Source: Candidatus Woesearchaeota archaeon (GTDB lineage Archaea > Nanobdellota > Nanobdellia > Woesearchaeales > JABMPP01). Taken from it: 54,307 bases of DNA. Below the pieces are notes generated by a model. It was not told the DNA's origin and made no database searches. It saw only the letters and a list, made by a program, of their open reading frames with translations. Positions 16,901 through 34,800 of this stretch are shown here, in pieces. Position 1 is the stretch's first letter, and the number at the start of each line of letters is the position of its first letter. The stretch covers positions 1 to 54,307 of the forward strand of contig JABMPP010000111.1 in NCBI GenBank assembly GCA_013202955.1. The letters run 5' to 3'. The translations under genes and the position numbers were made by a program.

Positions 16901-18154
16901 GATGATGCACCATTAAAGATTCTAAGAGATATTAATGAAACAAAAGACACTTTATTTGCAACATGGGATTGGATAACAAAAGCAGATGGAATATTCAAAA
17001 ATATGCAAAATGCCTGTTTGGCATTTGGAGGATACACAAGACTTTATGAAACACTTGAGTATCTAAAAATACCAATATATGCAGCTTCACAAGCATTTGG
17101 ACTTGAAACAGTATGGAAAGTTTATTCTGAAGTAATGAAAGGACTAGAAAAGATAAAAGACTTTGTTTGGGGGAAATGGGCTTCTTTTGACAACTTAATA
17201 GGAAATTTTGGTTCATCTGATATTGAAGGAGGGCCAATATTAGAAGGAGTAGATCAGATTCTTGGTGGAAGCGCTAAGGCTGGAGAAGAGGTTGGAATAT
17301 TAAAAAGAATGTGTGCTTTCTCAACATGTGCACAATGCTTTGACAAAAATTTCAGAGGTATTTTTTATGAAAAATTAGGAGAGGTAACTGACACACTTCC
17401 TGACTGGTATACAGGAGCAAATCAATGGCTTTCAGATAATTTTATTCAGGATCAATTAGGAGTAGATGAGGATGAAGATGTTTATGGCTTCCCTTTCAGT
17501 ATGTTAGGTGATCTTTCAGATCCAGATAAAGTAACCCCTTATTTAGAATCCTCATTATCACCAGATAAAAGCTTTATAACTGCTGTTTCGTGTGCATGTG
17601 TTCCTGCAATTATTTCTCATATGCAAAGATGGAGAGGAATACAATGTGAATATATAGATTGTTTGAAAGATTCTGCAGTTACATTATATAATACTGAAGG
17701 ATGTGCAAATGTAAGGGAGTGGAATGAATGCTTATATGTTACTGGCTCTATAACTAATTTCATCCCTTTAACAGATGCTGTTGAAAAAGCAGTAAATGTA
17801 TTAGCAAGCCTTATCAATGATGCTCCTGCCAGAGCAATAACCGCAACAAGAAACACACTTTGTGAATCATTGGATAAGATAGATCCTGCGAAAGATAATG
17901 TTTTAGGTGCAATTGAGATTCCTCCTTTACAATCAATTTCGTGTGGTATTTTGGATGCAGTTATTTTGGGTTATGATTTTGGAGAGTGGGAAGATTATAT
18001 GTTTTGGACAAATTGGGATGTTCCATGGACAGAAGCAAATGTTAAGGATCCATGTACAGGAATTTATTGTGATGATGATAATGATTGTAGTAATAATGAA
18101 AAATGTTTTGATGGAGTGTGCTTTGATTTAGGAGAAGCAGATATACTTGTATAA
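13973..18154 (+). CDS. Giant (1393 aa) secreted protein: tandem Ig-like domains plus Cys-rich C-terminal core
   Basis: Uninterrupted ORF with an N-terminal anchor (MQKSGFVAIYLIVLMISL). Six D-x-x-[AN]-P-x-[IV] domain boundaries occur about 100-130 aa apart. The C-terminal region is Cys-rich (CACVPA..., CDDDNDCSNNEKC). Confidence 0.85.
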   Translation: MKTMNKMQKSGFVAIYLIVLMISLPIYSSVVYGLYANTPYVYGNDNIRDYRRETDVLNVKVENIDFQNDYTQILKDYLLLVPSGISPLPFTTPSSVCSDGVPATCTYVATGPNTFTPQAKSGWRVAFYNDTQRNNYLGSTDTFSFYIDGEAPVVTLNQPVGTVDGLSVPFMVQELSGGGPSALCSGISEIIIYGEETDTNDFRELRRIIIDEACTSNTDTVDELSGYPISNNLVKSMLGLGNDVYDITICVDAYDRLGQPDNREDNRQCSDPFTYDLEAPSIDSFNIETMDGRDINTIYISDGDTSLNIIVTVSNDPTSTITGDFSYFNRNYADLTINCVNGLCEETITVSNTVVTGTAQITIIATDEFGNTDEYPGTFTVSVDSFNPVLESVKSNMVFDGISYVKANENSMSAVINETESGFLTQKPSLTQNPSFMGVPADTCAEHASAGQWTCNWDGFNFTGLSDGTIYPLAPVSLSGTDDAGNDIVTSSCTTECSVTADIVAPNISLDVNGGATVAVGDDLAINATFTESSSGFAGTSAASVQAASSCGLNLISCSSPETRGNLWCYWEGNVADITCMTNEITFSIEDRVGNVGEYIEKLQDDIAPKIVSLTSYGDFVGKANDFMAVINEVGAGISKENIKMTSTELDVSAKEADSCDGATGDVNCYWYNITYDGNAGSVTVSLDVADNVDPVPNTNSSSKTFNVDVTAPTGGDVFIQEIEDLRTEYFQSGDKLSIKVSGIEDSQSSSIKGMLNASEIGLSDNYEITCINTTPSEDTFECEWYWDELTPNLEIPASVIGRDKTLRFKFLDHTDNVNEGINAVIDVLESEDATEQRYVMVVSEPSPVERLDRQVLATTGNVPIFFPVSFTKKLETQQTILFEKSADCSSGLDVVQQSLFMTERLRSSSTRVRDNLKLLIGTYGGQPLQPEDTLVDSFEVDCTITIIYDDENDDKIYTETHEVSSLEIPLYRSPVDDAPLKILRDINETKDTLFATWDWITKADGIFKNMQNACLAFGGYTRLYETLEYLKIPIYAASQAFGLETVWKVYSEVMKGLEKIKDFVWGKWASFDNLIGNFGSSDIEGGPILEGVDQILGGSAKAGEEVGILKRMCAFSTCAQCFDKNFRGIFYEKLGEVTDTLPDWYTGANQWLSDNFIQDQLGVDEDEDVYGFPFSMLGDLSDPDKVTPYLESSLSPDKSFITAVSCACVPAIISHMQRWRGIQCEYIDCLKDSAVTLYNTEGCANVREWNECLYVTGSITNFIPLTDAVEKAVNVLASLINDAPARAITATRNTLCESLDKIDPAKDNVLGAIEIPPLQSISCGILDAVILGYDFGEWEDYMFWTNWDVPWTEANVKDPCTGIYCDDDNDCSNNEKCFDGVCFDLGEADILV

Positions 18155-18155
18155 A

Positions 18156-21100
18156 ATGAACAAGAAGATTGGAATAATTAGTGTAATGATTTTAGTAGTT
18201 ATGTTTTTAGTTAGTGCTAATAGTGCTCCAACTTCAAGTGCAACTCCACCAACATCAAATGGACCATTCACTCCATCAGTGAGTGTTACATTGTCTGGCA
18301 TAGATTTAGATGGTGATGAGTTTACAATATTTTATACAACAGATGGGTCAGACCCTGTATCAAGTGTCACAGCACTGCCTTATAATGATCCTATACAGAT
18401 AGATACAACAACAACCTTAAAGTATTACGCAATGGATGATCTTGGAAATGAAGAAGCCGTTCATACAGAGAATTATATTATCAATCAACCACCAACTGTA
18501 ACATTAAGTGCTAATCCAACAAGCGGAACTTCTCCATTATCAGTTACATTTACAGGAGGATGTTCTGATGATAATATTTATACTTGCACACTTTATCTTG
18601 GTAATGGCACTGAGGTAGATTTTTCTGATGGAATGGGGATAATATTCAGTGAAGGAACATATAATGTTATATTGGAAGCAGTAGATGATGAAGGGGAATC
18701 TGCTGAAGACACAACAACAATAACAGTTGCTGCTCCTGCTCCAAATAATCCACCTGTATTTGATCAAATACCTATTCAAACTGGATATTTTGGTGAAGAG
18801 ATTTCTTTTACTGTTTCAGCAACTGATTCTGACAATGATCCTTTGACATATTCTGTAACAAGTCTTCCAGATAATCCAACAATTGACGATCAAACAGGAG
18901 TATTCACATGGACTCCGCAAAATGCTCAACCACCAATTGACTCAAGCACATATTATGCATCATTCACAGTTAATGATGGTATTGTTGATACTCAAATGTC
19001 AGTTAGGATAGATGTTGAAGCACGACATTATGAATTGGAAGTAATAGTGTATGAGCAAGGCACCACAACTGGAATAAGTGGTGCTACTGTTACAATAACT
19101 CAGGGAGGATCTGGCCAATGTGTGGTTTCAGGTAGTGTGTGCACAATTGATATTGGAATAGCATATCCTGGAACTGTTCAGTTTAAAGTTGAAGCATCAG
19201 ATTATCAAACCCAGGAAAACATAGAATCCCAGTTTACGCAAGGAGATTATAATTTACAATCTCTTCCAGTAGAATTGTTTCCTTTTCACCCAATCTCCCT
19301 GAATGTATTTGTAAAAGATTCAGATAATGATCCAGTAGGTGGTGCAGATGTAACTATAGAAGGCACATCATTTACTTGCACAACAGCAAGATGGGGAGGT
19401 AATAAAGGCACATGTACAATCTCTGGTGATCTTACTGAAGGGGATTATAATGTTATTGCAGAAAAATCCGGTCTTCTTGGAATGGGTGATTATTACGCTG
19501 ATACTAAGCAGGTAAATGTAAACAATAATGGTGGTACAACCCCCAATCCTTTGGAATTTAATTTAGCAAATGTTAATCTTATAACAGTCACATTTAATGT
19601 TGATGTAAAAAGAACTGGAACAACGAATCCAATTCAATCTGTAAATGTACAGATAGATGATTATTATGATAATAATAATGTTCATATGACTGATGGTGAT
19701 TTATGCACAACAGACCCTCAAGGAGTTTGCACAAGAGAGATAACAATAGAAGAGGGAGGATTAATAGAATTAACTGCTTCACATGATTTATATTCAGAGC
19801 AAAGTTCTGGAGCTACTTACAACACTGATGGAGCAACCATACCAATTAATTTTTTAATGGATCCAAAAACAGTTTCAATAAACGGAGTTGTTGTGCAACA
19901 GGGAACAAATCCTACTTTACCAATTGCTGGTGCTACTGTTAATCTTGATGGAAGCACAACATTAACAGCAACAACAGGTACTGATGGCAGTTTTACAATT
20001 CCAAATATTCCTGCACCTGAAATAATACCAGGAACCCATCATTTAGAGATATCACATTCTGATTTTGTAGATAATAATAATGTTCCTATATCAGATCAGC
20101 AGAACACATATGTTGGTTCTATAGATGTTGGGAATATTGAGTTAGCAAGAACAGGAGTTGATTATATTCTTAATTTAGATGTTAAAGACAGTGTTACAGA
20201 TGATCCAGTAGATAATCTTAATGTATTCCTGAATGATCAACAAATTGCTTCTAATGCTGCCCATGATTTTTTTATAGTAACACAGATGATGGCAAACACA
20301 GATTATATATTGGTAATTAAGAAAGATAATTATAATGATTATACTCAAAGTATAAGTACTACTACACCAAGCCCAATAAATATAATAATTGTTAATGTTG
20401 CACCAGAATATGAATTAACTGTTACAACCATTGATGGAAACACTCAACAAGGTATGGATAGTGTAATTGTCACAACAACAACTGGTCAAACATGCACTGT
20501 TCAAACAGGAGATATGGCATGCCAGATTAATTTTGGAGCAACAAATCCTGGAGGTGTTGAAGTTAGTCTTAGTAAACCAGGATATGAAACATTGGAAGAA
20601 TATGTCCTGTTTTTGGATGGAGAGTATTTACAATCATTTACTGAGGAGCTATTTCCTCTTCAAACTATTTCCTTGCCTGTGACTGTAAAAGAGGAAGATG
20701 ATACAACACCAATAAAAAACGCAGAGGTAAGAATAAGTGGCACAACACTTTCTTGTGAAACATCTGACCAAGGAACATGCACAATCTCTGGTGATCTTAC
20801 TGAAGGATATTATGTTGTTACTGCACAAAAGCCTGGCATTTTTGGCTGGGGAAGTTATGAACCACAACCCAAGGACATAAATGTAGATGACACTGGTGTG
20901 GTGAATCCAGCTTCATTGGAATTCAATCTTGTAAGAGGAGGCACTAATCTTATTACTATAATACTTAACATTAATGTTTTGGGTGGTGCAATAACACCAG
21001 CAGAAATTGTTGAAAACGCTATACTAAGAATAAGTAAGTTCTTTGATGATAATAATATAGTGTATACTGATTATCTCTTTTGTACAACAGATTCTAATGG

Positions 21101-24100
21101 AGCTTGTTCAGAAATAGCTTTTAATGTTGAAATAGATGAACCTGTTATCTTAACTGCAACACATGAGTTATATGATACTGGAACATATGAAAAAAGTTAT
21201 AGTTGGAGTGGGGTGGAGATTGAAGATGATATTGAAATAACTTTAGAATCAAAGAAGACCACAGTAAAAGGAAAGATTGTGCAACAGGGAACTCCTGCTT
21301 TACCAGTTGTTGATGCTACTGTAACAGTTTGGGGAGAAACAGAACATTCTATTATTACTGATAATAATGGAGATTTTAGTATTCCAAATGTTGAAGCCTA
21401 TGTGTTTTTTGATGGAGACTCCAATATAATAGAAGTGACACATAATGATTATGAGTCAAAAGATACTTCTTTTGATGGTACAACTGTTTATTCTGAAACT
21501 TATCAATTATCTTCAAATATAGAAGTAAGAAGAGCAGGACAACCAGTAACATTTAAAGTTCATGCAACTGATAAAGGCTCAACAGATGTGTTAAATGATC
21601 TTGATATATTTTTAAATAATCAGCCAATAATTGGAGATTTAGATTCTGACGTCGATATATATACTAATTTAGTAGCAGGAACTGATTATAACCTAGTTAT
21701 CAGAAGAACTGATTATACTGAAGTTACTGAAACAATAACAACAGATACAGATGGTTTAACAATAAATGTTGAGATGGATCCAGCAAGTCAGCACCAATGT
21801 GAAGCAGAAGGATATACTTGCCATGACCCTGCTAAATACAGATGTGGTGAAGATGAGAATGGTTTTGAGACTGTTGAAGCATATGGTGGTTGTTCCACCA
21901 TTATAGGTTCAAAGCTTTGCTGTAAAAGCGCTGGCACAGCCCCTAAAAAAGTATATGCAAGAGATGGTGAAAAATGTGGTGAAAGCTATGAAGTACATAC
22001 ACTTGGTGTTAAATGTATAGATGAATTAAACAATGAATGTAAAGAACAGATTATATTCCATAGATGTGAAGAAGATGACAGCCCTTATACTAAAATAATG
22101 CTAGTTGATGAAACTGGAGCAGAGATAACTGCTAATGTTGAAATGAAAAATGATCCTTTTGTATTTACTATTTATTGCGAAGCTAAAGTCACAAATGACA
22201 GAGTTTTCTGTGATGATTTAAGTTATGTTACTTCACCTAGCGGATCTGTAACAGGACCATTTAATGATGTAACAACAGGTGCAGAACAAGGAAGAACCTT
22301 TACTATATCATTGACAGATTCTTTTAAAATCAGTGATCCTCCGATTGAAACAACAACAATGACATTTACTTCCAAAGGAAAGAATAAGAATCTTATTATT
22401 GAATACACAGCTGTTATTTTAGAAAGCATTGAAGTATTAAATCAACTCTTGGAGTTTTCTATAACACAAGATGATGGAGAAGCAACCATAACCACAAAAT
22501 GCACTTATAAAGATGGACTCACAGATGATGATTGTGAGTTTGACAGCATTGTGGCTAACCCAAACATTGTTTCAAAAAAGGATGGAAAAACAATTGAAAG
22601 AAATGTAGAGAGATGGATAGCAATGTATGATACTGCTTCAGACGCAGACAAAACAATTTATGAGTCTACAGGTATTGAAACTGAGGTAACATTCAAAAAG
22701 AAAGATAAAGAGTATGTTTATCCAGAAAAACTAATAATCGAAAAACCAGCTGATTTCTGTCAAATAACTGATGAAGAAACAGGGAAAACTAATGAAGATC
22801 ATGATGATTGTATTTGTCCTTCTGGAGAGGGTGTTAGTCCTTCAATGAAATATAAAAAACCAGAAATAGGAGATGGAGATGGTAATTACTATTGTAAAAC
22901 ATTAAGTTGTGATGATGGATATGTTTGTGTTGATAGTGAAGATCCAAGAGATTTTGAAAGCAGATGTTATCTGGACACAGATGATAACCCAACCTATATT
23001 GATCAAAGAGGTTGCACAAGAAGTGGATTTTTATCAGAAGAAGGCTGGAATCCCGGTACAGGGGAATTAAAATGCTGTGTTGTGGCAGATGAACCAGAAG
23101 AATGTGATGATTGTTATGTTAGTGGATCCTCATTAAACGAGCCATCATGCAAATGTAAGAGTACTTGTGAAAATGCAGGAGATATTATTTACAGCAACAG
23201 CTTTTACACATCAATGACATGTGGTGGTTTAAAAGAATCAGATAATGAATTTATTTATACCCTAAATAAATGTGATGCCTGTCTTACAGAAGAAAAACTT
23301 AAAAAAGAGGCTAAGAAAACAATAAGATTTAGGGGTTTAAATCCAGAGGGCTTAAATCAGTTAACTTATTCATGCCAGTGTGGGGTTTCCTGTGAAAACT
23401 CAAACAGATATCTTGACCCAGAAGAGGATAATTGTGGACAACGGGTAAAATATCAAGGAGGGGGTTGTGGTAGTAAATGTGATATAACTACTAAAGATAC
23501 AGAAAAAGAAATAGAAAGATGTTTATGTCCTGCATATTGCACAAAAGGGGGAGATCTTGTTAGGAATAATCAGGATTGTGGAGAAACAAGACCATGGGAT
23601 ATTGATTTAAGCTTAAGAGGATGGTTAGAAGGTTATGCAGGCCCAATTGACCCAAGAGCATCTAATATGGCCCAAAGATTTGGATGGGCAGACAAGTGGA
23701 CAAACATGTTAAAAAGAAATGATTTGTATATTGATGAATTCTCAATAACTCCATTAGAACAGCATGTTTGTGCAATGATAATAGGAGAACCAATGGGAGA
23801 AGATGATAATTTCACAAGATATCCTAATTATGAATTAAAAGAAAAAGCAACATTGAGTTATCAAGGCTCAAGATCACCTGTAAGTGTTGAATTCCCAGAT
23901 GTATTATTCCAGTTATCATCTGAAAAAACAGATGTGCTTCCTGACAACACAACAACAATTAAAGTTGAATGGGGTATATCTTTTACAGAACAGGAAGGCA
24001 TATTTGGAGTATCATACCATGAATGCACGTTAGATGATTGTGGTGGCAAAAAACCAAATGATGACGAAATGAAACTAATGGCATTTGTAACAGACCCTGA

Positions 24101-24377
24101 AACAGAAGAATTTGTAAATGGAAGCCTTGTTTATGAACCAGGATCAACTATTCAGGGATTCTCAGCAATAAACACATTAAATGATTGGGATTATGTTTGC
24201 ATAGTATATCAAACAAGAGAAAGCGAAACAGAATATAATAACCCAAAATATAAATGCTTACCAATATTACCAGAAAATTATGAAGAAGAAGGAGAAGGAA
24301 GCGGAAGTAGTGGAAGTCAGGCAACAGGTGAAGGTTGGAATCTTTATGGAGATGGTGTTGTAATTATTGAAGCTTAG
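18156..24377 (+). CDS. Giant (about 2073 aa) secreted protein: Fn3-assoc/PKD/cadherin-like domains, tandemly duplicated CarboxypepD_reg-like beta-sandwich array, Cys-rich C-terminal region
   Basis: The first ATG is at 18156; the ORF track used TTG at 18147. Sec-type signal KKIGIISVMILVVMFLVSANSA. PKD-like segment SANPTSGTSPLSVTFTG...DDEGESAEDTTTITV. Cadherin-like segment NNPPVFDQIP...ATDSDNDPLTYSV. Repeated [AG]ATV..-G......TD..G.F.IPN motifs are present, and a unit of about 455-460 aa is duplicated. Confidence 0.85.
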   Translation: MNKKIGIISVMILVVMFLVSANSAPTSSATPPTSNGPFTPSVSVTLSGIDLDGDEFTIFYTTDGSDPVSSVTALPYNDPIQIDTTTTLKYYAMDDLGNEEAVHTENYIINQPPTVTLSANPTSGTSPLSVTFTGGCSDDNIYTCTLYLGNGTEVDFSDGMGIIFSEGTYNVILEAVDDEGESAEDTTTITVAAPAPNNPPVFDQIPIQTGYFGEEISFTVSATDSDNDPLTYSVTSLPDNPTIDDQTGVFTWTPQNAQPPIDSSTYYASFTVNDGIVDTQMSVRIDVEARHYELEVIVYEQGTTTGISGATVTITQGGSGQCVVSGSVCTIDIGIAYPGTVQFKVEASDYQTQENIESQFTQGDYNLQSLPVELFPFHPISLNVFVKDSDNDPVGGADVTIEGTSFTCTTARWGGNKGTCTISGDLTEGDYNVIAEKSGLLGMGDYYADTKQVNVNNNGGTTPNPLEFNLANVNLITVTFNVDVKRTGTTNPIQSVNVQIDDYYDNNNVHMTDGDLCTTDPQGVCTREITIEEGGLIELTASHDLYSEQSSGATYNTDGATIPINFLMDPKTVSINGVVVQQGTNPTLPIAGATVNLDGSTTLTATTGTDGSFTIPNIPAPEIIPGTHHLEISHSDFVDNNNVPISDQQNTYVGSIDVGNIELARTGVDYILNLDVKDSVTDDPVDNLNVFLNDQQIASNAAHDFFIVTQMMANTDYILVIKKDNYNDYTQSISTTTPSPINIIIVNVAPEYELTVTTIDGNTQQGMDSVIVTTTTGQTCTVQTGDMACQINFGATNPGGVEVSLSKPGYETLEEYVLFLDGEYLQSFTEELFPLQTISLPVTVKEEDDTTPIKNAEVRISGTTLSCETSDQGTCTISGDLTEGYYVVTAQKPGIFGWGSYEPQPKDINVDDTGVVNPASLEFNLVRGGTNLITIILNINVLGGAITPAEIVENAILRISKFFDDNNIVYTDYLFCTTDSNGACSEIAFNVEIDEPVILTATHELYDTGTYEKSYSWSGVEIEDDIEITLESKKTTVKGKIVQQGTPALPVVDATVTVWGETEHSIITDNNGDFSIPNVEAYVFFDGDSNIIEVTHNDYESKDTSFDGTTVYSETYQLSSNIEVRRAGQPVTFKVHATDKGSTDVLNDLDIFLNNQPIIGDLDSDVDIYTNLVAGTDYNLVIRRTDYTEVTETITTDTDGLTINVEMDPASQHQCEAEGYTCHDPAKYRCGEDENGFETVEAYGGCSTIIGSKLCCKSAGTAPKKVYARDGEKCGESYEVHTLGVKCIDELNNECKEQIIFHRCEEDDSPYTKIMLVDETGAEITANVEMKNDPFVFTIYCEAKVTNDRVFCDDLSYVTSPSGSVTGPFNDVTTGAEQGRTFTISLTDSFKISDPPIETTTMTFTSKGKNKNLIIEYTAVILESIEVLNQLLEFSITQDDGEATITTKCTYKDGLTDDDCEFDSIVANPNIVSKKDGKTIERNVERWIAMYDTASDADKTIYESTGIETEVTFKKKDKEYVYPEKLIIEKPADFCQITDEETGKTNEDHDDCICPSGEGVSPSMKYKKPEIGDGDGNYYCKTLSCDDGYVCVDSEDPRDFESRCYLDTDDNPTYIDQRGCTRSGFLSEEGWNPGTGELKCCVVADEPEECDDCYVSGSSLNEPSCKCKSTCENAGDIIYSNSFYTSMTCGGLKESDNEFIYTLNKCDACLTEEKLKKEAKKTIRFRGLNPEGLNQLTYSCQCGVSCENSNRYLDPEEDNCGQRVKYQGGGCGSKCDITTKDTEKEIERCLCPAYCTKGGDLVRNNQDCGETRPWDIDLSLRGWLEGYAGPIDPRASNMAQRFGWADKWTNMLKRNDLYIDEFSITPLEQHVCAMIIGEPMGEDDNFTRYPNYELKEKATLSYQGSRSPVSVEFPDVLFQLSSEKTDVLPDNTTTIKVEWGISFTEQEGIFGVSYHECTLDDCGGKKPNDDEMKLMAFVTDPETEEFVNGSLVYEPGSTIQGFSAINTLNDWDYVCIVYQTRESETEYNNPKYKCLPILPENYEEEGEGSGSSGSQATGEGWNLYGDGVVIIEA

Positions 24378-24387: not shown

Positions 24388-26589
24388 ATGAAAAAAAGAG
24401 GTGTAAAGACGAAAAAGGCACAGGTTACACTATTTATATTAATAGGAGTAGTAATACTTTTTGCATCAGCTATTTATTTCTATGTTCAGAATAAAGAACA
24501 AGTTGATAAGTTAGGATTAGAGCTGGTTAGAGTTCAAGAAGCAATAGAACAACAAGCACCTGTTGATTATTATGTTGAACAATGTGTGAAAAAGATAGGA
24601 ACAGAAGCTTTTGAATTGGCTGGTTATCAAGGAGGACATGTTTATATTAATGAGAATGAATTTAACACCAATTGTTATGACCCAACAGAATGTGACCTTT
24701 TCATGCATGATGAGCTAAAAGTGCCTTATTGGAATTATTTAAGGTCAAGGAATACTGACCCAAATATAGTATTTTCCTCAAAAAGACCTAGTTTGCTTGA
24801 GACAGAAGAACAAGTAAGTGATTATGTTGAAACTGAGCTAAATAGGTGCTTAGATGACTTCAAAGTACTAGAAGGAAGAGGTTATAACTTTGAAATTCTG
24901 GGACAACCAAAAATAAGAACAAAAGTCAGATCCAATGATATCATACTTGAATTAAATTATCCATTCACAACAAGAAAAGGAGGAGAAGAAAAAGAATATG
25001 AGTTGTTTTATTCCACCTTAAACATTAATTTCAAAGATATTTATAATCTTGCCACAGAAATAACAGAAGCTGAGATAAATTATGTTTTCTTAGAGAGATT
25101 TACAAACACTGTTTTATCAAGTTTAGGAAGCCTTGATACTAATCTTGGAATTCCACCAAGATATATTTCCTCATTTGGTGCAACAGCAGGAATATGGATA
25201 CAACATCAAGTAAAGCAAAGAATACAGGAATCATTAACAATTCATTTTCCTTATATTAGAATACCATATACCTCAAATGATGTTCCCATAGAAATTGAGG
25301 TTGTTGATCCTTATACTGCAATAACCCAGGCAATGGTAAACAGCATGGTTTTCAATATACTTGAGAGTGATTATAATGATGTTTCAGTTGAGCTTTATTA
25401 TCTAAACTGGCCATCTTATATCAAAATAAATGATGGAGAAGCTGTTTTAGAACCTTCTTCACTTTTTTCCACACCAAGATTATTAAGAACAATTGGATTA
25501 GGTCAAATTTTCCAAGAATATGATTTTTCATTTGATGTAAGTTATCCTGTTCTTTTGGTTCTAAGAAATGAGGATTCATTATTTGGAAAAGGATATTCAT
25601 TTTATTTTGCATTAGAGTCTAATATTAGAGACAACCACCCATTAACAAACAACAGCCAGATTGTTAGATTTGAGACAGGAAGGGAATCCACCATTGCATG
25701 CAGGCCTTCACAAATGAGGAGTGGAGAGGTTACAGTAATAACCAAGGATAAGATAACCGGTGAATCTTTAGAAGATGTACAAATAGAATATTCTTGTGCT
25801 AATTTATTTACCTGCTTTAGTGGATCAACTGAGCTAATCAATGATTCAGCAATGTTCAAAGGAAAATTAAATATTAATTGTGTTGAAGGTGGTGGTTATT
25901 TAACAGCCACCAAACCAGGATATCAACCATTTTCTGTTTCATATACTGCTACACCAGAGGACTCTGATACAATTGAGATAGAAATTTATCCATTAAAAGA
26001 GGTTGAGATCAGAGTGATGAAAAGAACAAAGGATGATTTATATAATTTAAAGCATTGGACTAGTTATATGGGTTCATCAACCCAATCAGCGCGTTTACAG
26101 GCTTTAGAGGAGCTACAAACAGAATTAGGAGAGTATGATGAAACATATTTATCCTTACAAAGACATGCTCAGGAAACAGGAGAGCATGAATTTGAAACCT
26201 TTATGATGTTTGAAGCAAATTCAAGTGAAACCAAAACAATAAGCCTGATTCCAGGAACATATAGCCTATCTTCACAATTAATTTATCTTCAGCCAATGAA
26301 TGTAACAACAACTATTCCCGCCATAGAGTGTTCATGGTGGCAAGAATGGGTTGGTGGTTGTGAAGAAAGAGATGAAGAAGTTATAACTATGGAGCTTGAT
26401 TCAGCACCAATAGGTGGAGCTGAATTGAATGTTACAATAACTGATGACCTAAATGAAGCAGATAATATTACTTTCTATATAATGACCCCTGAAGACATAC
26501 CTTCTACTTCTGAAGAATTAAGTGATGCCTTGAATCTTGGAGAGCTATCAGAAGAACATGAATCATCCTTAAGGCCTGTTTTAAGATAA
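24388..26589 (+). CDS. Large (733 aa) protein with class III (archaeal type IV pilin-like) signal peptide and CarboxypepD_reg-like domain
   Basis: ATG at 24388 sits 7 nt after AGGTG; the track's 24367 start is TTG inside the upstream gene. The N-terminus MKKRGVKTKKA/QVTLFILIGVVILFASAIYF has a charged leader, then A-Q, then a hydrophobic helix. Paralogous to the 27653 ORF. Confidence 0.8.
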   Translation: MKKRGVKTKKAQVTLFILIGVVILFASAIYFYVQNKEQVDKLGLELVRVQEAIEQQAPVDYYVEQCVKKIGTEAFELAGYQGGHVYINENEFNTNCYDPTECDLFMHDELKVPYWNYLRSRNTDPNIVFSSKRPSLLETEEQVSDYVETELNRCLDDFKVLEGRGYNFEILGQPKIRTKVRSNDIILELNYPFTTRKGGEEKEYELFYSTLNINFKDIYNLATEITEAEINYVFLERFTNTVLSSLGSLDTNLGIPPRYISSFGATAGIWIQHQVKQRIQESLTIHFPYIRIPYTSNDVPIEIEVVDPYTAITQAMVNSMVFNILESDYNDVSVELYYLNWPSYIKINDGEAVLEPSSLFSTPRLLRTIGLGQIFQEYDFSFDVSYPVLLVLRNEDSLFGKGYSFYFALESNIRDNHPLTNNSQIVRFETGRESTIACRPSQMRSGEVTVITKDKITGESLEDVQIEYSCANLFTCFSGSTELINDSAMFKGKLNINCVEGGGYLTATKPGYQPFSVSYTATPEDSDTIEIEIYPLKEVEIRVMKRTKDDLYNLKHWTSYMGSSTQSARLQALEELQTELGEYDETYLSLQRHAQETGEHEFETFMMFEANSSETKTISLIPGTYSLSSQLIYLQPMNVTTTIPAIECSWWQEWVGGCEERDEEVITMELDSAPIGGAELNVTITDDLNEADNITFYIMTPEDIPSTSEELSDALNLGELSEEHESSLRPVLR

Positions 26590-26590
26590 A

Positions 26591-27361
26591 ATGAAATCAT
26601 ACTTTAAGAAACAAAAGAAGGTATTTATAGAATCAATAAAAGACTGTTTAAAAATAAAAAAAACATTTAAAATTGCCGGAGTTGATTTTTTAGGCTATTC
26701 TTTAATAATATTTATCTCTTTAGTCATCACAGGTTATTTGAATTATTTAATGAGTAAAGTGTTGTTTTTTGGAGCCTTGGAAAAAGAGGAGCTAATAGGA
26801 AGTATTGCTCTGATGGATTCTTTTTTGTTTGCCTATACAAAATTTAAAGTATTGACAATTTTCCTAACAATATTACTTTTACTGATAACTTATTTTATAA
26901 TCGCAGTATTTAAGGGTGGAATTTATTCAAGCATCTTAAAGAAAAAACTTTATTGGGGGCATATTTGGAAGAAATTTTTATTAAATATTATTTGGTTTAC
27001 ATGCTGGATTGTAATTTTATTGGTTACTATCCTTATTTTAAGAAACACAGTGATGGTTTATGTATTTTGGATATTGGTATTACTTATTTTTCATCTAACA
27101 CCAATTCTATATCTTAAGTTCACCCAGAAAGATAAAATATTTAATTCTATAAAAGAAGCATTAAAAACAGGTTTTAAAAAGATACATCATTTTATAATTC
27201 CTTATTTAGTCATATTACTTTATTTTATTTTAATCTCATTTATTGGTTATTTTGTTTCTCTTGCATCAGAAACATTATCTGTGATCATTATTGTCTTATT
27301 ATTATTTGATTTAGTTACCTGGTCAAGATATTATATTATTAGGGTTATAAAGTACTACTAG
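26591..27361 (+). CDS. Polytopic membrane protein (about 5-6 TM helices), function unknown
   Basis: 256 aa with repeated long hydrophobic stretches separated by K-rich loops. It starts 1 nt after the upstream stop. Confidence 0.65.
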   Translation: MKSYFKKQKKVFIESIKDCLKIKKTFKIAGVDFLGYSLIIFISLVITGYLNYLMSKVLFFGALEKEELIGSIALMDSFLFAYTKFKVLTIFLTILLLLITYFIIAVFKGGIYSSILKKKLYWGHIWKKFLLNIIWFTCWIVILLVTILILRNTVMVYVFWILVLLIFHLTPILYLKFTQKDKIFNSIKEALKTGFKKIHHFIIPYLVILLYFILISFIGYFVSLASETLSVIIIVLLLFDLVTWSRYYIIRVIKYY

Positions 27362-27450
27362 TAGGAAAAGTAATACTTTAATGGGGTGAAAAACGTAAGT
27401 TACGGAAAACAAAGTTTTTCTATGTTAGAAAATCTTCGATTTTCGAAACC

Positions 27451-27459
27451 TTTATATAT
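27451..27459 (+). promoter_or_regulatory. TATA-box-like element for the second transcription unit of the cluster
   Basis: tttatatat lies about 50 nt upstream of the ATG at 27510, in the only sizeable intergenic gap of the cluster. It is preceded by short inverted repeats. Confidence 0.4.
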
Positions 27460-27509
27460 CATTAAAGTAAGAATAGTACTATTAGTATGAAAAGTATGAC
27501 TTTAAAACA

Positions 27510-27656
27510 ATGAAAAAAGGAGTAACAAAGGACAAGATTAGCATTTCTCTTGATAAAGAACTACATGAAAAGCTAAAAGAGCATTGTGAAAAAAACATGG
27601 TTAAGCTCTCAACATATATAGAGCATCTTATAAAAAAAGGACATAAAGGAAAATGA
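27510..27656 (+). CDS. Small ribbon-helix-helix (CopG/Arc/MetJ-like) protein, absent from the ORF track
   Basis: Hand translation gives MKKGVTKDKISISLDKELHEKLKEHCEKNMVKLSTYIEHLIKKGHKGK (48 aa). It shows a beta-strand, helix, helix RHH pattern. The stop TGA at 27654-27656 overlaps the ATG at 27653 of the next gene (ATGA). Confidence 0.6.
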   Translation: MKKGVTKDKISISLDKELHEKLKEHCEKNMVKLSTYIEHLIKKGHKGK

Positions 27657-29545
27657 AAAAAAAGAGAGGTCAAATTACAACGTTTATTGTAATGGGAATG
27701 ATAATAATACTATTGCTTTCTATATTTATCTACTTAAGGCAGTCAACAACATTTTTTAATCCAGAGAAAGTGCTGCCTGCTGAGTTTGTGCCTGTGAAAA
27801 GATATGTAGAGCAGTGTGTTGAAACAACAGCAAAGGATGCTGTTTTCCTTGCAAGTATGCAGGGAGGTTATGTAGAATTGCCTCTTTGGATAGAAAGTGA
27901 TCCAGACAGCTATGTTGGAGAAGGGCTAAAGATTCCTTTGTGGTTTTATAATGGTCAGAATAGAATGCCAGAATTAGGAGATATTGAAGATGGCATAGCA
28001 GAGCATGTAAACTCAAATCTAAAAAATTGTTTAGGAAATTTTGAAGGGTTCAGTGAGCAGTTTGATATAATGGAAATAGCTGAACCAGTCACAACAGTTT
28101 CTATAAGTGATGATAATATATTCATAAGAACAGAATACCCATTAAAGATAGCAAACAAGCAAGGCACTGAAACAACTGATTGGGAGGATTTTGTTTCTAC
28201 ATTTGAAGACAGCTTAGGAAAGAAATACAGACTTGCATCCTTAATAATGAACCATGAGAATGAAAATTCTTTCCTTGAAGCGCTCACAATGGAGATGATT
28301 GCTACATCTGATTTCCCAAATGAAGGATTAGAGTTAACATGCGGAAAAAGAGAGTATGATATTGATGAGGACCTTGTTCCATCATTAAAACTAATGCTTC
28401 TGGCAAATTTAAGGTATCTGACATTTGAAAATACCCAGACAAGAGAGCTTCCAACAGAATATCATGAAAATCTCTACAGATTCACTGTTACAAGGAAGGA
28501 TTTCTCTGATTTGAGAGTTGATGCAATGTTTGACAGAGATTCTGATATTATAATGGATGTTTATCCACAGGAAAACAGAATTGTAGAGCCAGTAAACCTT
28601 AATGTGCCTTTTATAAACACCTGCTTTAAGATATATAATCACAAATATGATATTTATTATCCATTAACATTCCAGATAATTGACCAGGGAGAAGAACCAA
28701 GTTATTTCTTGTTCTCAACTCCTGTTGTAATTGATAATAGTGCACCAAACAGAGTTTATGGTATTAGGGAACCATTAATAGAAGACACAATAAACCAAGG
28801 AGATTATTGTGAAGACAAACAGTTTATGTTAAATGTGTATGCTATAGATGAATACACAAATGAGTTTATTCCTAATGCTGATATAAAATTTCAATGCGTA
28901 AGATTCATGTGTGATATGGGCACAACCTCAATAAGAACAATTGATGATGGATTGGTTCCAGATGCTTCTGATTTTGTGCTTGAAACAGAATTCCCAGCAT
29001 GTGGGGGGGGATTCTTAATAGCAGAAAAAGAAGGTTATATGAGGGGATTCACCGAGGACATATTAACAGGAGAGGTAACAATAACAGGAGAAACACATGT
29101 GTATGAAGGAGAGCAACATAATATTTACATGACACCATTAAAAACTCTTGATTATAGAGTGCTGGTTGTTGAATTTGAAGGGAATGAAACAATCCCAAAT
29201 ATTAGGGAGCTAGAGGATGATGAGATTGCAATAATAAAACTCACAAATGAGGATAAGGATTATAGTGAAACCCTTATTTATCCATTTGAATATAATTTAT
29301 ACAGCAACATAACGCTTATAGTTGGTGATTATACATATGGGATTGATATAACTCTGATGCAAAATGAAACATACACAGGTGGGTTAATAGGAGATTGGGA
29401 CACAACCGGAAACAGCATTTATAGTGCAGAGAGAATTGATTTTTATGTTTTAAAGAAAACAGAGGATCCTGTTGAAACAAATTATGTTGGATTGGCTGAA
29501 CTTATAGATTTAGCTTCACTAGATTATACCCCAAGAATAAGATGA
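27653..29545 (+). CDS. Large (630 aa) protein with class III (pilin-like) signal peptide, paralog of 24388..26589
   Basis: N-terminus MKKKRG/QITTFIVMGMIIILLLSIFIYL. Shared blocks are PV..YVEQCV......F.LA..QGG.V, LK[IV]P.W.Y and N..L..CL..F. A CarboxypepD_reg-like segment is also present. Confidence 0.8.
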   Translation: MKKKRGQITTFIVMGMIIILLLSIFIYLRQSTTFFNPEKVLPAEFVPVKRYVEQCVETTAKDAVFLASMQGGYVELPLWIESDPDSYVGEGLKIPLWFYNGQNRMPELGDIEDGIAEHVNSNLKNCLGNFEGFSEQFDIMEIAEPVTTVSISDDNIFIRTEYPLKIANKQGTETTDWEDFVSTFEDSLGKKYRLASLIMNHENENSFLEALTMEMIATSDFPNEGLELTCGKREYDIDEDLVPSLKLMLLANLRYLTFENTQTRELPTEYHENLYRFTVTRKDFSDLRVDAMFDRDSDIIMDVYPQENRIVEPVNLNVPFINTCFKIYNHKYDIYYPLTFQIIDQGEEPSYFLFSTPVVIDNSAPNRVYGIREPLIEDTINQGDYCEDKQFMLNVYAIDEYTNEFIPNADIKFQCVRFMCDMGTTSIRTIDDGLVPDASDFVLETEFPACGGGFLIAEKEGYMRGFTEDILTGEVTITGETHVYEGEQHNIYMTPLKTLDYRVLVVEFEGNETIPNIRELEDDEIAIIKLTNEDKDYSETLIYPFEYNLYSNITLIVGDYTYGIDITLMQNETYTGGLIGDWDTTGNSIYSAERIDFYVLKKTEDPVETNYVGLAELIDLASLDYTPRIR

Positions 29546-32500
29546 AAAACAACAAATTACCAATAATTGTATTGTTTTTGATAGTTTTACTTCCAACCTC
29601 GTATGCTCTTGTTATTGAATTTATTAGTGTGACAACTTTTGAAGATTATGCATTAGTTGAATGGAGCACTGATGTTGATGCTAATTCCGAAATTGAATAT
29701 GGAACAAATGAATCACTTGGGATATTTGTTGAGAACGACGAATACTTAACAGAACATTTAATGAATATATCTGAATTAGAACAAAACACTGATTATTTCT
29801 TTGTTGTAACATCATGCACAAATGAAAGTGTGTGTGAATCATCTGATATGGAGAGCTTTTCTCTTTTAGGTGATAATCCTGTGTTTAACCTAACAATAAC
29901 AATGGATGAGCTTCCAGATAAGGTAAACACAACAAGATATATTTTATCAGGTGTGACAGAAGGAAATGTTCTTATTAGAGCTTATATTGATATAGATGAA
30001 AACCCAGATCCCATTCTTATAACTCATGTTGATGGCACATCCAATCATGCAATCACAACTGATAATGTTACAGGTATTTTTGAGGGCATAATATCTCTTA
30101 ATCCAGGATTTAACAACATAACATTAAAAGGAAGGAAACAAGGTAGAATAAGCAGTATAGACCTGCTTGTTTATGCTGATGTTGTAATACCCAGAGTTTC
30201 TTTAAATCCTATTCCTGAGGCAGTAAGAAGCGAAATGATTTATATCTCAGGCACTGTAACTGAGGAGGCACTTATAGAAATATTTTCTGATAATAACATT
30301 GTTTATGTGTTTAATGTTCCTATGGGACCATTTAATAGATCAAATATTTCAATTGGAGAGGTAAATGATGGGAATGAAGAGTTCTTTAATATTAGCTTAA
30401 GAGCAACAGATGATGTTGGTAATTCAGATACTTCAAACACATATAATATAAAAGTGGACAAAAAAGCACCTGAAATAGATTTTATAACAGATTTTAACCT
30501 AGCAACACATTCAACAATACTCAAAATAGAGGGAAACACAGAACCCTATGCAAATGTAAAGATAACAAACATAGGAAATTTCACAGATATATTTAGATTC
30601 AGAGAAGAAAGTGCTGTTAGCTTAATACAAATGGATCCAACCGGGCGTATATTAGGAAATGAAAGAGAGGCAACAGCAGATTCAGATGGTTATTTTAGTG
30701 TTAGTGTAAGTTTATTTCTTGGTTTTAATAACTTTTACATCAATGTTAGTGATAAGGTTGGAAACAGCATAGGTGAACATGAGAGCATCAGCTCGATTCC
30801 TGGTTCTGTTAATTGGTATGCATCGCAGGTTGAAGGTTACCCAACAAATATTTATTTTGAGGATATGGGGCCTGGATTTGATGCAACAGCATTTGTTGTT
30901 TTAGATTGGGTTGGTGGATTGGATGCACCTGTTGAAGCTGATGTAAAAAATGCAAGAATAGATGACAGAAGCAGAGGAGACAACCAGCTTATAAGTGATG
31001 TATCAGAGATAAAATCATATTATGACAGCACAAACAAGAGATTATATTCATTATTATCAGTCAAGGTAAAGCCATGGGCAGGAACAGCTGATGAATTGTT
31101 TGATCATCTTACTGATTCTATTCCAAAAGTTGATTTTGAAAAGCAACTTATAGCTCATTTTGAGCTTAGTGTGCAGGAAAAATATGCTGATGGATCATCA
31201 ACAACAGTAAAAAAATATGATAAAGTGGCTTATGCTGTTCAAAAGCCAGAGAATCTTGCCAAATGGCTTCCTCCTGAGATGATAAATGCAACATTGAAGA
31301 ACTTTATCAACCCTGCCATTAATATATTAGAAAAAGCAAAAGAATACACATTGTATCTAACAGGAGGATTTTTAGTGGGATGTGGTGCATCTATTGCTGC
31401 AAATTATATTGCTGCATTACTGCCAGATGCAGACACTGAGAAGTTTAAAAAAGCAATGTATTGGACATGTGACAGAGTTCTGTGTCCGACTGTTCCACCA
31501 ATGTGTGATGAAGAGTTTAAGGGTGGAGGGAATTCATGGACATTAGAAGAAGGAAAAGATAGGATAGATGTTGTGTATATGAATTATGATAATCTTGATC
31601 CAGATGAAAGAAGAAAACATAGATGTCCTAATGGAACAAAAGTTCTTATTCAAATCAATAAATTCAAAAAAGTGTCAAATCTTTTTGGATTAGGAAATGA
31701 TATAACTGAGACAAGAGAGCCTGAGTATTACTGCAGTGATAATAGCCCAACAGAATTAGGACAACCACGTGGACAGACTTTCCTTGGTTGCTTTAATAAG
31801 GAAGCTCCTGACTATGATGGTACAAAATGCTGGCTGGATGACAGCACATCAAAAGGAATAAACCCAAGAGCAGGGTTTTTCAGCTCATTCAAATGTGGAT
31901 GTACACCAGCAATGTATGGTTATTCAGCAAATACCTTAAAGGTCTTTGAAGGACTTGAGAAATGCATGCAACAGGCAATGATAGGAGAGGTTGCATCTGG
32001 GTTCTGCGAAAGAATGCTTTTAATGTATGGATGTGATGTTGCAACTGATTTGTTTAAATATGCTTTTGGTGAGGTGTTTGCTGAAGGTGTTGGAAAAGGA
32101 GACAGAGGGGCTGTTGGTGGATATAAGGAAAGAGCTGAGGAAATAAAAAGCTCATTAGTTGGAAGATATGGTGACAGCATACATGAAACAATGGGATTAT
32201 CACCTGAAAAGCTTGTTAATGATGCATGTTTGTTTGCGTTTACAGGAGATTTACAATTATTTGAGGGTGCGCTTGAGCAGTTTATTCCAACAGTGCCAAT
32301 AGCACCTTATGCGTTGGTTATGGCAAGCTCAAGACAGAATGGGTATGACCCATTTATAGGACAAATGAATGTTGATTATAATATTTATGTTGGAATTGTG
32401 CCAGGAGGGCCAACAGAGGTTGAGCTAAAGCTTGTGTGTGACAAAAGCAGAGATGGTGGAGAATATTGCCCTGCACAAAGAGAAGAAGTTCTTGTAACTC

Positions 32501-33960
32501 AGAATCTGCCAAGATTCCTTGACAGAGATGATTTTATTGACAAGAATATATTATATCAAGCAAATCCTGCAAGATTCTGGTATAATGAAGTTGTGCTTAC
32601 ATTGAGATACAGCTTAGGTAATGTGTCAGATGTAAAAACAATCAGACAATCAATAAAAAGACATGATGATCTTGCTTATGGGTGTTCATTTTCCTTACCT
32701 TATGGGATAAGTTGTAGTTCTATTTCAATAGATCCATCTGGATTTGCTGAGCTAATGCCTACAATGGGTGGGGTTGTTGGAACACATGTGTCACCATCAG
32801 ACACAATAACATATTATCCTGACAATAAGTTTGGATTATTAACAAAGATACACAATAATTATGGTGAAGAGTTTTATGTTAATATAGAACTAGAAGAGCC
32901 AAACGGCTGGAATGAATCAATACAATACAAAATAAACCCAAGCTTTGCTCCAAATGGAGAAACACAGTTTTATAATTTTCTTGTGGGAATACTTGGAAAT
33001 GATGTTGGTGCAGAAGGTGTTATTTATACTGGAGATGTAAATATTGATGGTAATTTGGTTACTGAACATGAGGGAGAGGGAAATGATGCAAAAGGAGTTG
33101 TTTACCTGAAATCCAACTTGGTTGATAAAACACAAGCTGTTAAAAATGGTCAAAGTTGGTGTGATGCCGCAACAAGTGTTGATGAACCAAATAGATGTGT
33201 GCTTGAATCTAGTATTCTAGAGGTTGTGAACGCAAATGAGCTACATAGGATTGATATATACAATGACACAAATGAAACATTGTTAATAAGCAGCATAAAT
33301 ATTATAACTGAGACAAGAGCATATTCTTCAGGAAACTATAGATTAAATATAGATATAATGAGAGATGTGAGCGGTGATGGAAGAGGAGATACTCAGATAC
33401 CATATGACACAAATTCCCAGGAATTAATGTTTGGATTTGGGGCTGAGAACAGAATACCTGAAAACTGTAACAGAAAACCAACTGTTGATTTAATAGAACC
33501 TATTGGGGATTATTTACCAAGAGGACCAAATCAGGAATTTATGATAGGCGCAAACATAGTTGATGACTGCAACATGATTGAATCAATCATAGTTAGTGTT
33601 GAGGAGAATAACAATGTGTTGTGTGAAATAACAAAAACATTAACCCCAGAGGATATTACAGATTCAAACAATAACTTTAATGATTGTGCATTAACTGTTG
33701 GAAGCTTGCCAGATGATAAGAGTGTGAATGAGGGAGGAACCCCACCTTATTATTCATTTAACTTAAATACAATGGATTTAACAGTTGGACATACAGATTC
33801 AAGTAATCCAAAATATTATGACATAAGATTCAAGGTAATAGATACTTCTGGCCAGGAAAATGAAGTCACAAAAACATTTGAAGTTGGAAATGTAACTATT
33901 AGTGAAATATCATTAAAACAAGTAACTGAAGATATGAAAATAGAAAAAATAAATATTTAA
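29542..33960 (+). CDS. Giant (1472 aa) secreted protein: FN3-like N-terminal domain, Ig-like domains, Cys-rich core
   Basis: ATGA overlap with the upstream gene. Sec signal MKNNKLPIIVLFLIVLLPTSYA. FN3/purple-acid-phosphatase-N-like segment (ALVEWSTDVDANSEIEYGTNESLG...TDYFFVV). Ig-boundary motifs DVVIPRVSL and DKKAPEIDF. Core motif CGCTPAMYGY...C...C. Confidence 0.85.
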   Translation: MKNNKLPIIVLFLIVLLPTSYALVIEFISVTTFEDYALVEWSTDVDANSEIEYGTNESLGIFVENDEYLTEHLMNISELEQNTDYFFVVTSCTNESVCESSDMESFSLLGDNPVFNLTITMDELPDKVNTTRYILSGVTEGNVLIRAYIDIDENPDPILITHVDGTSNHAITTDNVTGIFEGIISLNPGFNNITLKGRKQGRISSIDLLVYADVVIPRVSLNPIPEAVRSEMIYISGTVTEEALIEIFSDNNIVYVFNVPMGPFNRSNISIGEVNDGNEEFFNISLRATDDVGNSDTSNTYNIKVDKKAPEIDFITDFNLATHSTILKIEGNTEPYANVKITNIGNFTDIFRFREESAVSLIQMDPTGRILGNEREATADSDGYFSVSVSLFLGFNNFYINVSDKVGNSIGEHESISSIPGSVNWYASQVEGYPTNIYFEDMGPGFDATAFVVLDWVGGLDAPVEADVKNARIDDRSRGDNQLISDVSEIKSYYDSTNKRLYSLLSVKVKPWAGTADELFDHLTDSIPKVDFEKQLIAHFELSVQEKYADGSSTTVKKYDKVAYAVQKPENLAKWLPPEMINATLKNFINPAINILEKAKEYTLYLTGGFLVGCGASIAANYIAALLPDADTEKFKKAMYWTCDRVLCPTVPPMCDEEFKGGGNSWTLEEGKDRIDVVYMNYDNLDPDERRKHRCPNGTKVLIQINKFKKVSNLFGLGNDITETREPEYYCSDNSPTELGQPRGQTFLGCFNKEAPDYDGTKCWLDDSTSKGINPRAGFFSSFKCGCTPAMYGYSANTLKVFEGLEKCMQQAMIGEVASGFCERMLLMYGCDVATDLFKYAFGEVFAEGVGKGDRGAVGGYKERAEEIKSSLVGRYGDSIHETMGLSPEKLVNDACLFAFTGDLQLFEGALEQFIPTVPIAPYALVMASSRQNGYDPFIGQMNVDYNIYVGIVPGGPTEVELKLVCDKSRDGGEYCPAQREEVLVTQNLPRFLDRDDFIDKNILYQANPARFWYNEVVLTLRYSLGNVSDVKTIRQSIKRHDDLAYGCSFSLPYGISCSSISIDPSGFAELMPTMGGVVGTHVSPSDTITYYPDNKFGLLTKIHNNYGEEFYVNIELEEPNGWNESIQYKINPSFAPNGETQFYNFLVGILGNDVGAEGVIYTGDVNIDGNLVTEHEGEGNDAKGVVYLKSNLVDKTQAVKNGQSWCDAATSVDEPNRCVLESSILEVVNANELHRIDIYNDTNETLLISSINIITETRAYSSGNYRLNIDIMRDVSGDGRGDTQIPYDTNSQELMFGFGAENRIPENCNRKPTVDLIEPIGDYLPRGPNQEFMIGANIVDDCNMIESIIVSVEENNNVLCEITKTLTPEDITDSNNNFNDCALTVGSLPDDKSVNEGGTPPYYSFNLNTMDLTVGHTDSSNPKYYDIRFKVIDTSGQENEVTKTFEVGNVTISEISLKQVTEDMKIEKINI

Positions 33961-34727: not shown

Positions 34728-34800
34728 TTTTTATCACCATGAATATTAATTTTACTCTTAAGTAACAATTAGAATAAGTTACTTATATAATTTTCTATTT

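Follow-up and report, generated by a model that had tools for sequence, protein, structure and literature searches.

The window analyzed here, a stretch of 54,307 nucleotides (54 kb) from a Candidatus Woesearchaeota archaeon (contig JABMPP010000111.1), is a low-GC (~33%) archaeal chromosome segment in which genes for giant secreted proteins are accompanied by two genes, here called A and B, whose products begin with a type IV prepilin-like (class III) signal. The window also encodes TFIIB, MetRS, GMP synthase and three tRNAs, and the closest named relatives of its proteins are found in Candidatus Woesearchaeota and Nanobdellota. The two genes had been singled out in an original prediction made from the sequence, which took their products for minor or tip pilin subunits of unusually large size or for pilin-anchored scaffold proteins dedicated to this locus. 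Both open reading frames (ORFs) were present with the positions and lengths given in Table 1, and the N-termini and internal motifs on which the prediction was built were all found in the translations. The two proteins are paralogs, as had been proposed, and were aligned by BLASTP over most of their lengths (E = 2e-21, 24% identity, 573 columns). Neither gave a match to Pfam or NCBIfam when searched at full length.

The N-terminus of A consists of a basic leader of 11 amino acids (MKKRGVKTKKA, 24388-24420), a predicted class III cleavage site (A↓Q, where the arrow marks the site) and an uncharged helix of 22 residues (QVTLFILIGVVILFASAIYFYV, 24421-24486), and an AGGTG Shine-Dalgarno-like motif is located 7 nucleotides 5' of its ATG. 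The leader of B is 6 amino acids long (MKKKRG, 27653-27670) and is followed by the predicted site G↓Q and a 22-residue helix (QITTFIVMGMIIILLLSIFIYL, 27671-27736). When all six frames of the window were scanned with a FlaFind-like rule after Szabo et al. 2007, which asks for [KRDE][GA][ALIFQMVED][ILMVTAS]x3 no later than residue 45 and a hydrophobic 20-mer behind it, A and B were the sole matches. The matches in about 200 kb of related loci were essentially family members only, and no small ORFs with a class III signal were found there. Judged by a rule of this type, both proteins have the short basic leader, the small residue at position -1 and the uncharged helix of about 20 amino acids that define a class III signal. 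The giants encoded nearby, four to five in number, all start with a Sec-type signal of the ordinary kind, in which an n-region and a short h-region lead up to an AxA-like site.

These features are conserved in the family to which A and B belong (homologs are denoted by P numbers and related loci by L numbers). Q7, T9 and F11 (B numbering) were invariant in alignment A1 (15 sequences, 33% mean column identity) and, together with G15, at least 90% conserved in alignment A3 (60 diverse members, 23% mean identity). For statistics on the N-terminus, 160 representatives that were mutually less than 50% identical were anchored solely on the pattern Q.[TS].[FYW] in order to avoid circularity, and this anchor was found in 146 of them. 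At position -1 these 146 sequences had Gly (96), Ala (38) or Ser (12) and no other residue. Lys or Arg occupied position -2 in 142 and position -3 in 138 of them, the leader was 4-12 amino acids long in 132, and the distance from the Gln to the first charged residue was 22 residues in 83. The family consensus is [KR][KR][G/A/S]↓Q[IVL]-T-x-F-I-I-x-G. Given that the restriction of position -1 to Gly, Ala or Ser is a requirement of prepilin peptidases and not of a plain signal-anchor, this indicated a full class III signal architecture, and the N-terminal organization suggested earlier for A and B (short Lys/Arg leader, Gly or Ala, Gln at +1 and a hydrophobic helix of about 20 amino acids) was borne out by both the scan and the family statistics.

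The sites of A (KA↓QV) and B (RG↓QI) match substrate sites of EppA, as had been anticipated from the Gln at +1. The sites in the EppA-processed Epd pilins of Methanococcus maripaludis are RAQI, KGQV, KGQL and KGQI, and EppA needs Gln at +1 (PMC4371748). The further assignment of the two N-termini to DUF361 (PF04021) did not hold, since there was no match to its hidden Markov model (HMM) at E ≤ 10 and the motif QxSxExxxL with Glu at +5 is not kept; position +5 is Phe in 124 of 125 members and position +9 is Gly. Searches of the N-terminal peptides against Pfam and NCBIfam at E ≤ 10 returned noise only (e.g. LPXTG-like anchors), and the N-terminal peptide of a relative in locus L011 gave a sub-threshold TadE/G-like match (PF13400, E = 0.0017). 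Judging from its residue pattern, the signal of A and B is most aptly classed with the Q+1 class III type, of which it forms a Q-x-T-x-F variant.

A word-indexed homolog search returned only 11 relatives of B and 5 of A, and a query with a 60-sequence alignment added none. When 1.84 billion representatives of 50%-identity clusters were searched exhaustively with a HMMER profile, 9,133 of them matched at E ≤ 1e-3, 6,815 at E ≤ 1e-10 and 2,006 at E ≤ 1e-30. Among the 150 best matches almost all were full-length (600-790 amino acids), and the family members are extracytoplasmic-type proteins of about 620-790 amino acids. Names were available for only a handful, and every member bearing a name was a 'hypothetical protein' from Woesearchaeota or Nanobdellota. 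The family is very large, unannotated and, as far as sampled, restricted to DPANN archaea, and we found in the literature no prior description of it or of a prepilin peptidase from Woesearchaeota. Two metagenome-assembled genome records (L009, CAZSAD010000003.1; L010, CAYVNO010000022.1) are labelled uncultured Methanosarcinales archaeon, yet carry a B-type gene followed by the giant gene C described below, a pair that was otherwise encountered only in records from Woesearchaeota and Nanobdellota. Either these records may be misassigned taxonomically or the family may extend beyond DPANN.

Three proteins, P0011 (358 amino acids), L011:10004-12226 and L010:1256-3571, have the same class III N-terminus and the first ~130 ectodomain residues in common with the family (C55...QGGY...KIPxW...C126) and differ in their C-terminal parts, that of P0011 continuing with immunoglobulin (Ig)-like repeats. 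The N-terminus and the start of the ectodomain therefore behave as a portable module.

The loci at which the genomic context of the family was examined included three found in genome contigs with a B-type alignment and seven from a metagenome scan, numbers too small for a statistical phylogenetic profile, and the sample on which the pairing of genes could be judged comprised about ten independent lineages with readable context. An ortholog of the giant C was located directly 3' of the B-type gene in the window and in L001, L004, L005, L007, L009, L010, L012, L015 and L019 (about ten distinct lineages). Whether homologs occur together with the giants had been named in the original prediction as a point to be checked, and in these lineages B-type genes were always followed directly by a C ortholog. 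The pairing held even for a homolog with 30% identity to B (P0016). The start of C overlaps the stop of B in the window (ATGA), and the coordinates of the two genes overlap also in L004 and L007. In L001, L005 and L009 the pair stands alone among housekeeping genes with no other giant, and the minimal module therefore consists of B and C. At locus L011 a family member that is more distant but shares the N-terminal module (L011_b) precedes a giant of 2,191 amino acids that is not clearly a C ortholog. The idea of pilin-anchored scaffold proteins dedicated to the locus, which had been offered as an alternative to pilin subunits, gains support from this tight and deep linkage of the family to the giant genes.

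The C orthologs have a Sec-type signal in common, and Pfam searches identified in them an N-terminal array of fn3, Pur_ac_phosph_N and Big_13 domains; the length of this fn3/Ig array differs between lineages. The core of C (about 600 amino acids, approximately residues 570-1150) is conserved in the orthologs of L001, L004, L005, L007, L009 and L010, with many invariant cysteines and the motifs CDRVLCP, GYDPFxG, VPGGP and GGEYCP, and has no relative in Pfam or the PDB. Hydropathy analysis of the giants revealed no hydrophobic segment besides the N-terminal signal peptide, and the giants would be anchorless once the signal is cleaved.

An AlphaFold2 model of B, made with 15 homologs (mean predicted local distance difference test, pLDDT, 83.7), begins with a helix (residues 4-31), which is followed by a linker modelled with low confidence (32-42; its length varies across the family), an alpha/beta region from residue 43 to ~380, two beta-sandwiches at ~390-600 and a C-terminal helix. 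The alpha/beta region, which was also modelled separately (residues 38-384, pLDDT 80.8, predicted template modelling score 0.79), has the conserved motifs QGGY, KIPxW, ENxxxFLE and YNHKY and the first four of the eight conserved cysteines of B (55, 126, 230, 324, 386, 415, 420 and 450). The conserved cysteines and the strong acidity of A and B fit an extracellular, disulfide-bonded domain. When the whole model was compared with the PDB using Foldseek, only generic tandem beta-sandwiches with low template modelling (TM) scores were found (SdrD B domains, teneurin, SpaA and BcpA), and no pilin, pseudopilin or archaellin was among the matches listed. One match of the N-terminal domain to a tail protein in BFVD (predicted viral structures) was disregarded as weak (TM 0.13).

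Two structural claims made earlier can be judged from this model. The CarboxypepD_reg-like beta-sandwich proposed for both proteins was confirmed in part: the AlphaFold model of B has two beta-sandwich domains with Foldseek similarity to CnaB, Ig, teneurin and transthyretin-like folds. This similarity does not point to CarboxypepD_reg in particular; PF13620 gave no Pfam match in A or B at E ≤ 0.1 and hhalign against the PF13620 domain of a neighbouring giant gave a probability of 0.1. The suggestion of a minor or tip pilin subunit was not supported, as the model has no alpha-1 helix that is continuous with and packed on a globular head in the manner of type IV pilins and archaellins. There is no pilin-like fold past the signal and the first helix, and a linker precedes the orphan ectodomain.

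The B-C pair is in several cases part of an extended cluster with the order giant(s), A, a membrane protein of ~250 amino acids, B and C (window, L003, L007, L015 and L022). The 2,076-amino-acid giant next to A is found in the same arrangement in L022 and L003. Relatives of the 1,393-amino-acid giant adjoin class III-signal family members elsewhere, L010_b following L010_a and a gene of L021 lying downstream of the A-type P0015. Set beside the order B then C, this indicated that paralogous family proteins seem to pair with different giant families. No giant in the window was found to be a paralog of another by BLASTP. The density of N-glycosylation sequons proved uninformative as an indicator of location at the cell surface. 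The 2,076-amino-acid giant has 4 N-x-S/T sequons compared to ~22 expected from composition shuffling and the BNR-like protein at 7028-9250 has 2 compared to 8 expected, the other giants being near expectation.

The 256-amino-acid membrane protein between A and B is kept at the same position in L004, L007, L010, L015 and L022 (with BLASTP matches in L004, L007, L010 and L015). Alignment A6 showed an invariant D32, an HHFIIPYL-like (FIIPYL) motif and W244, and no Pfam match was obtained. The idea that this protein is a divergent prepilin peptidase was rejected as unsupported, since only one Asp is invariant and neither a GxGD motif nor a Pfam match is present. In L007 a nucleotidyltransferase gene (8287-8823, plus strand; NTP_transf_2/Polbeta, MNT-like) is located between the 251-amino-acid membrane protein and the B-type gene, and a second MNT-like gene is found at the end of the locus. 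The 48-codon ORF that precedes B ends in a stop codon overlapping the B start (ATGA), and ~60 nucleotides 5' of this ORF, at about 27451, there is a TTTATATA box. This ORF is conserved only in close relatives (L003:9861-10004 and L004:1861-2004), and by eye it looks like a ribbon-helix-helix regulator heading the B-C operon.

Among the remaining genes, those on the minus strand at 33957-37285, downstream of C, were rejected as part of the module, their conservation being confined to the closest relative. The cluster opens with a gene (7028-9250, plus strand) for a protein of 740 amino acids, whose N-terminal half is Cys-rich and whose C-terminal half is a BNR/sialidase-like beta-propeller (PF13088, with an E-value of 7.7e-07 that falls short of the gathering score). 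The hydrophobic segment of this protein is at residues 41-59, and the annotated start may therefore be too far upstream. A predicted tRNA-Ser (GGA) at 41996-42081 (plus strand) overlaps the first 29 codons of a cyclophilin ORF (41995-42645). Given this overlap and that the cyclophilin Pfam domain begins at residue 67, the real start is probably downstream of the tRNA. A scan for bacterial promoters and terminators was not meaningful for an archaeon.

Table 1. Positions of A, B and associated features in the window.
Feature	Coordinates	Strand	Description	Evidence or homologs
Giant, 1393 aa	13973..18154	+	Relatives adjoin class III-signal family members elsewhere	BLASTP
Giant, 2076 aa, directly 5' of A	18147..24377	+	Four CarboxypepD_reg, PKD, CHB_HEX_C; Sec-type signal, no anchor	
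Protein A	24388..26589	+	733 aa, A-type paralog	Homologs P0013-P0016
Protein A N-terminus	24388..24486	+	Leader, predicted site and helix	Pattern scan, family statistics
Multi-pass membrane protein, 256 aa, between A and B	26591..27361	+	About five hydrophobic segments	Hydropathy
48-codon ORF	27510..27656	+	MKKGVTKDKISISLDKELHEKLKEHCEKNMVKLSTYIEHLIKKGHKGK; stop overlaps start of B (ATGA)	
Protein B	27653..29545	+	630 aa, B-type paralog	Homologs P0002-P0011
Protein B N-terminus	27653..27736	+	Leader, predicted site and helix	Pattern scan, alignments, family statistics
B orphan alpha/beta ectodomain	27779..28804	+	Residues 43-384	AlphaFold
B two beta-sandwich domains, then C-terminal helix	28814..29461	+	About residues 388-603	Model secondary structure, Foldseek
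Giant C, partner of B	29542..33960	+	1472 aa; Sec-type signal, fn3/Ig-like N-terminal array, Cys-rich core	

Given that the family genes are always found beside a gene for a giant, secreted, adhesin-like protein, the family proteins probably hold the giants on the cell surface. We propose, with moderate confidence, that A and B, by way of their class III signal, serve the adjacent anchorless secreted giants as membrane anchors or adaptors and would form a surface adhesin complex with them. In this scheme the 22-residue hydrophobic helix would insert A and B into the membrane through Sec, and a PibD/FlaK/EppA-like class III signal peptidase with its gene elsewhere in the genome would remove the basic leader of 4-12 amino acids before Gln+1. 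The helix would then stay in the membrane as an N-terminal anchor or pack into a short bindosome-like stalk, while the flexible linker would present the disulfide-bonded orphan alpha/beta domain and the two beta-sandwiches. The ectodomain is proposed to bind the adjacent giant, i.e. C for B and the upstream giants for A. The outcome would be an adhesin-like complex held on the cell surface, and the translationally coupled genes would suit a fixed stoichiometry.

Several results weigh against this proposal. The absence of a pilus ATPase, platform or peptidase gene from the vicinity, which the original prediction had noted, was found to be right for the whole window when all ORFs were searched with Pfam (no T2SSE/PilB-type ATPase, T2SSF/PilC/TadC platform or Peptidase_A24). 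Similarly, for 79 neighbour proteins from 11 related loci there was no ATPase, platform or peptidase among the 25 most frequent of 73 Pfam families, where a strong T2SSE match would show and a weak single peptidase match could be hidden. PF04021, PF07790 and TIGR02537 did not match any of five N-terminal peptides even at E ≤ 10. The fold of the ectodomain gave no functional clue, as Foldseek found nothing better than E = 0.018 in the PDB for the N-terminal domain of B (residues 38-384) and the family profile matched no PDB sequence. Finally, the argument for a physical complex between A or B and a giant is one of synteny.

Were A and B genuine minor or tip components of a type IV filament (TFF), their Gln+1 helices would, after cleavage, be pulled out of the membrane by an ATPase and platform of the Epd-like type (system 1) with genes elsewhere and be built into the tip or base of a pilus, and the giant would ride on them as the adhesin in the way of PilY1 on the minor-pilin tip complex. 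We consider this unlikely, even though the class III-type signal has an EppA-like site and system 1 (Epd type) filament clusters have been reported in DPANN archaea (bioRxiv 10.64898/2026.04.22.720090). The genes do not belong to a type IV filament gene cluster, and about 20 loci were found to have no pilus ATPase, platform or small pilin. There are known examples of large modular pilins and of tip adhesins, such as PilB of S. sanguinis (PMC8179133) and the DUF2341 proteins in archaeal type IV pilus (T4P) loci (PMC4858521), and it has been argued that binding proteins with class III signals (SPIII) may be inserted into the pilus (bioRxiv 10.64898/2026.04.22.720090). However, the AlphaFold model has the low-confidence, length-variable linker in place of an alpha-1 helix running on into a pilin head, none of the Foldseek matches listed for the whole model or for the N-terminal domain was a pilin or significant, and a head of 600-700 amino acids per subunit would be hard to place except at the tip. 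The N-terminus could alternatively be an uncleaved type II signal-anchor, in which the Q-x-T-x-F-I-I-x-G face packs helices, e.g. with the 256-amino-acid multi-pass protein or in homo-oligomers. Packing would leave three features unexplained, namely the exclusive use of Gly, Ala or Ser at -1 (146/146), the two preceding Lys/Arg positions and the fixed Gln, and B-type genes occur without the 256-amino-acid protein in L001, L005 and L009. A hydrophobic segment of 22 amino acids has the length of a transmembrane span, T, F and G along one helix face would suit packing, and a conserved membrane protein adjoins A in the extended clusters; this explanation can also accommodate the lack of a nearby peptidase and of matches to curated class III HMMs. 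On balance it appears doubtful.

SlaB, the stalk protein in the two-component surface layer (S-layer) of Sulfolobales, is anchored at its C-terminus. A and B together with the giants might by analogy form such a coat, with the family protein as a SlaB-like stalk and the giant as a SlaA-like canopy, which seems to us very unlikely. The anchor of A and B is at the N-terminus, the opposite end from that of SlaB, and no sequence or fold match to S-layer proteins was found in Pfam, NCBIfam, PDB sequences or by Foldseek. Adjacent and co-oriented genes for a medium-sized anchor protein and a protein of 1,400-2,000 amino acids, giants without an anchor of their own, proteins that are all very acidic and Cys-rich as expected for extracellular proteins, and a pair that is present in every sampled lineage are all compatible with a coat. 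Several paralogous modules with very different giants and variable Ig/fn3 arrays at one locus are, on the other hand, more like diversifying adhesins than a lattice, and other proteins have already been proposed as S-layer proteins of Nanobdellota (PMC11420986).

Woesearchaeota, like other DPANN archaea, are believed to live attached to hosts. The protein components of the attachment organelle of Nanobdellota have been described as unidentified (PMC11420986), and the modules of A or B with a giant are, speculatively, reasonable candidates for host-attachment components. A more specific version, in which A, B and the giants are part of a host-contact apparatus of Nanobdellota/Woesearchaeales (DPANN), with EppA-like processing and Epd-type (system 1) assembly into a short pseudopilus or stalk that displays the giants as host-specific adhesins, strikes us as quite improbable. 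If this were true, a type IV filament would here have been functionalised to attach a symbiont to its host and not for motility or nutrient binding. As anchors or adaptors, the members of the A/B family provide concrete candidates, open to testing, for what keeps giant surface proteins without an anchor on the cell, and they would carry the notion of functionalised class III-signal proteins further than nutrient binding. The signature [KR][KR][GAS]↓Q[IVL]TxFIIxG could also be used to annotate thousands of hypothetical proteins.

Among known systems, the Epd pilins of M. maripaludis are like A and B in having a short basic leader, a site of the type [KR][GA]↓Q[IVL] and a fixed Gln at +1. They differ in the residues that follow (QxSxExxxL in Epd pilins compared to Q-x-T-x-F-x-x-x-G with Phe at +5), and A and B have no PF04021 match, an unrelated ectodomain and no Epd genes nearby. 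S. sanguinis PilB, PilY1 and the DUF2341 proteins are examples of how large adhesive modules can be borne by a pilin-type N-terminus or by the tip of a pilus (PMC8179133, PMC4858521), and large FlaFind-positive proteins and tip adhesins have been discussed for archaeal T4P loci (PMC4858521; PMC4371748). These proteins keep a pilin module or are encoded in pilus gene clusters, neither of which applies to A and B. SlaB and SlaA of Sulfolobales resemble the A/B-giant pairs in that a medium-sized membrane-anchored protein and a very large anchorless surface protein form a gene pair, and they differ in having no homology to them (Pfam, PDB sequence and fold) and the anchor at the other end, whereas the A/B system has several paralogous modules per locus.

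The binding proteins of the Sulfolobus bindosome are non-pilin proteins with class III signals that are encoded away from TFF loci (PMC3047682), and 4,364 predicted SPIII binding proteins, likewise encoded away from TFF loci, have been reported (bioRxiv 10.64898/2026.04.22.720090). The emphasis placed earlier on the unusual size of A and B is therefore justified in comparison with pilins, which they exceed 3-10 times, but not among class III-signal proteins, where large members have precedent. Like A and B, bindosome and SPIII proteins have a large non-pilin ectodomain after the class III signal and helix, and their genes lie beside a functional partner and away from the TFF machinery. In contrast to them, A and B have no substrate-binding-protein domain in Pfam or NCBIfam, and no ATP-binding cassette (ABC) transporter genes were found in the Pfam results for the window or among the 25 most frequent of 73 families at the related loci. 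The partner is instead a giant secreted fn3/Ig protein, the lineage is DPANN, and the site is of the Q+1 (EppA-like) type, whereas that of the bindosome proteins is of the PibD type (A/G↓L/I-S). What sets A and B apart from the known class III-signal proteins is hence the Q-x-T-x-F variant of the signal, the orphan ectodomain, the restriction to DPANN archaea and the pairing with giant fn3/Ig proteins.

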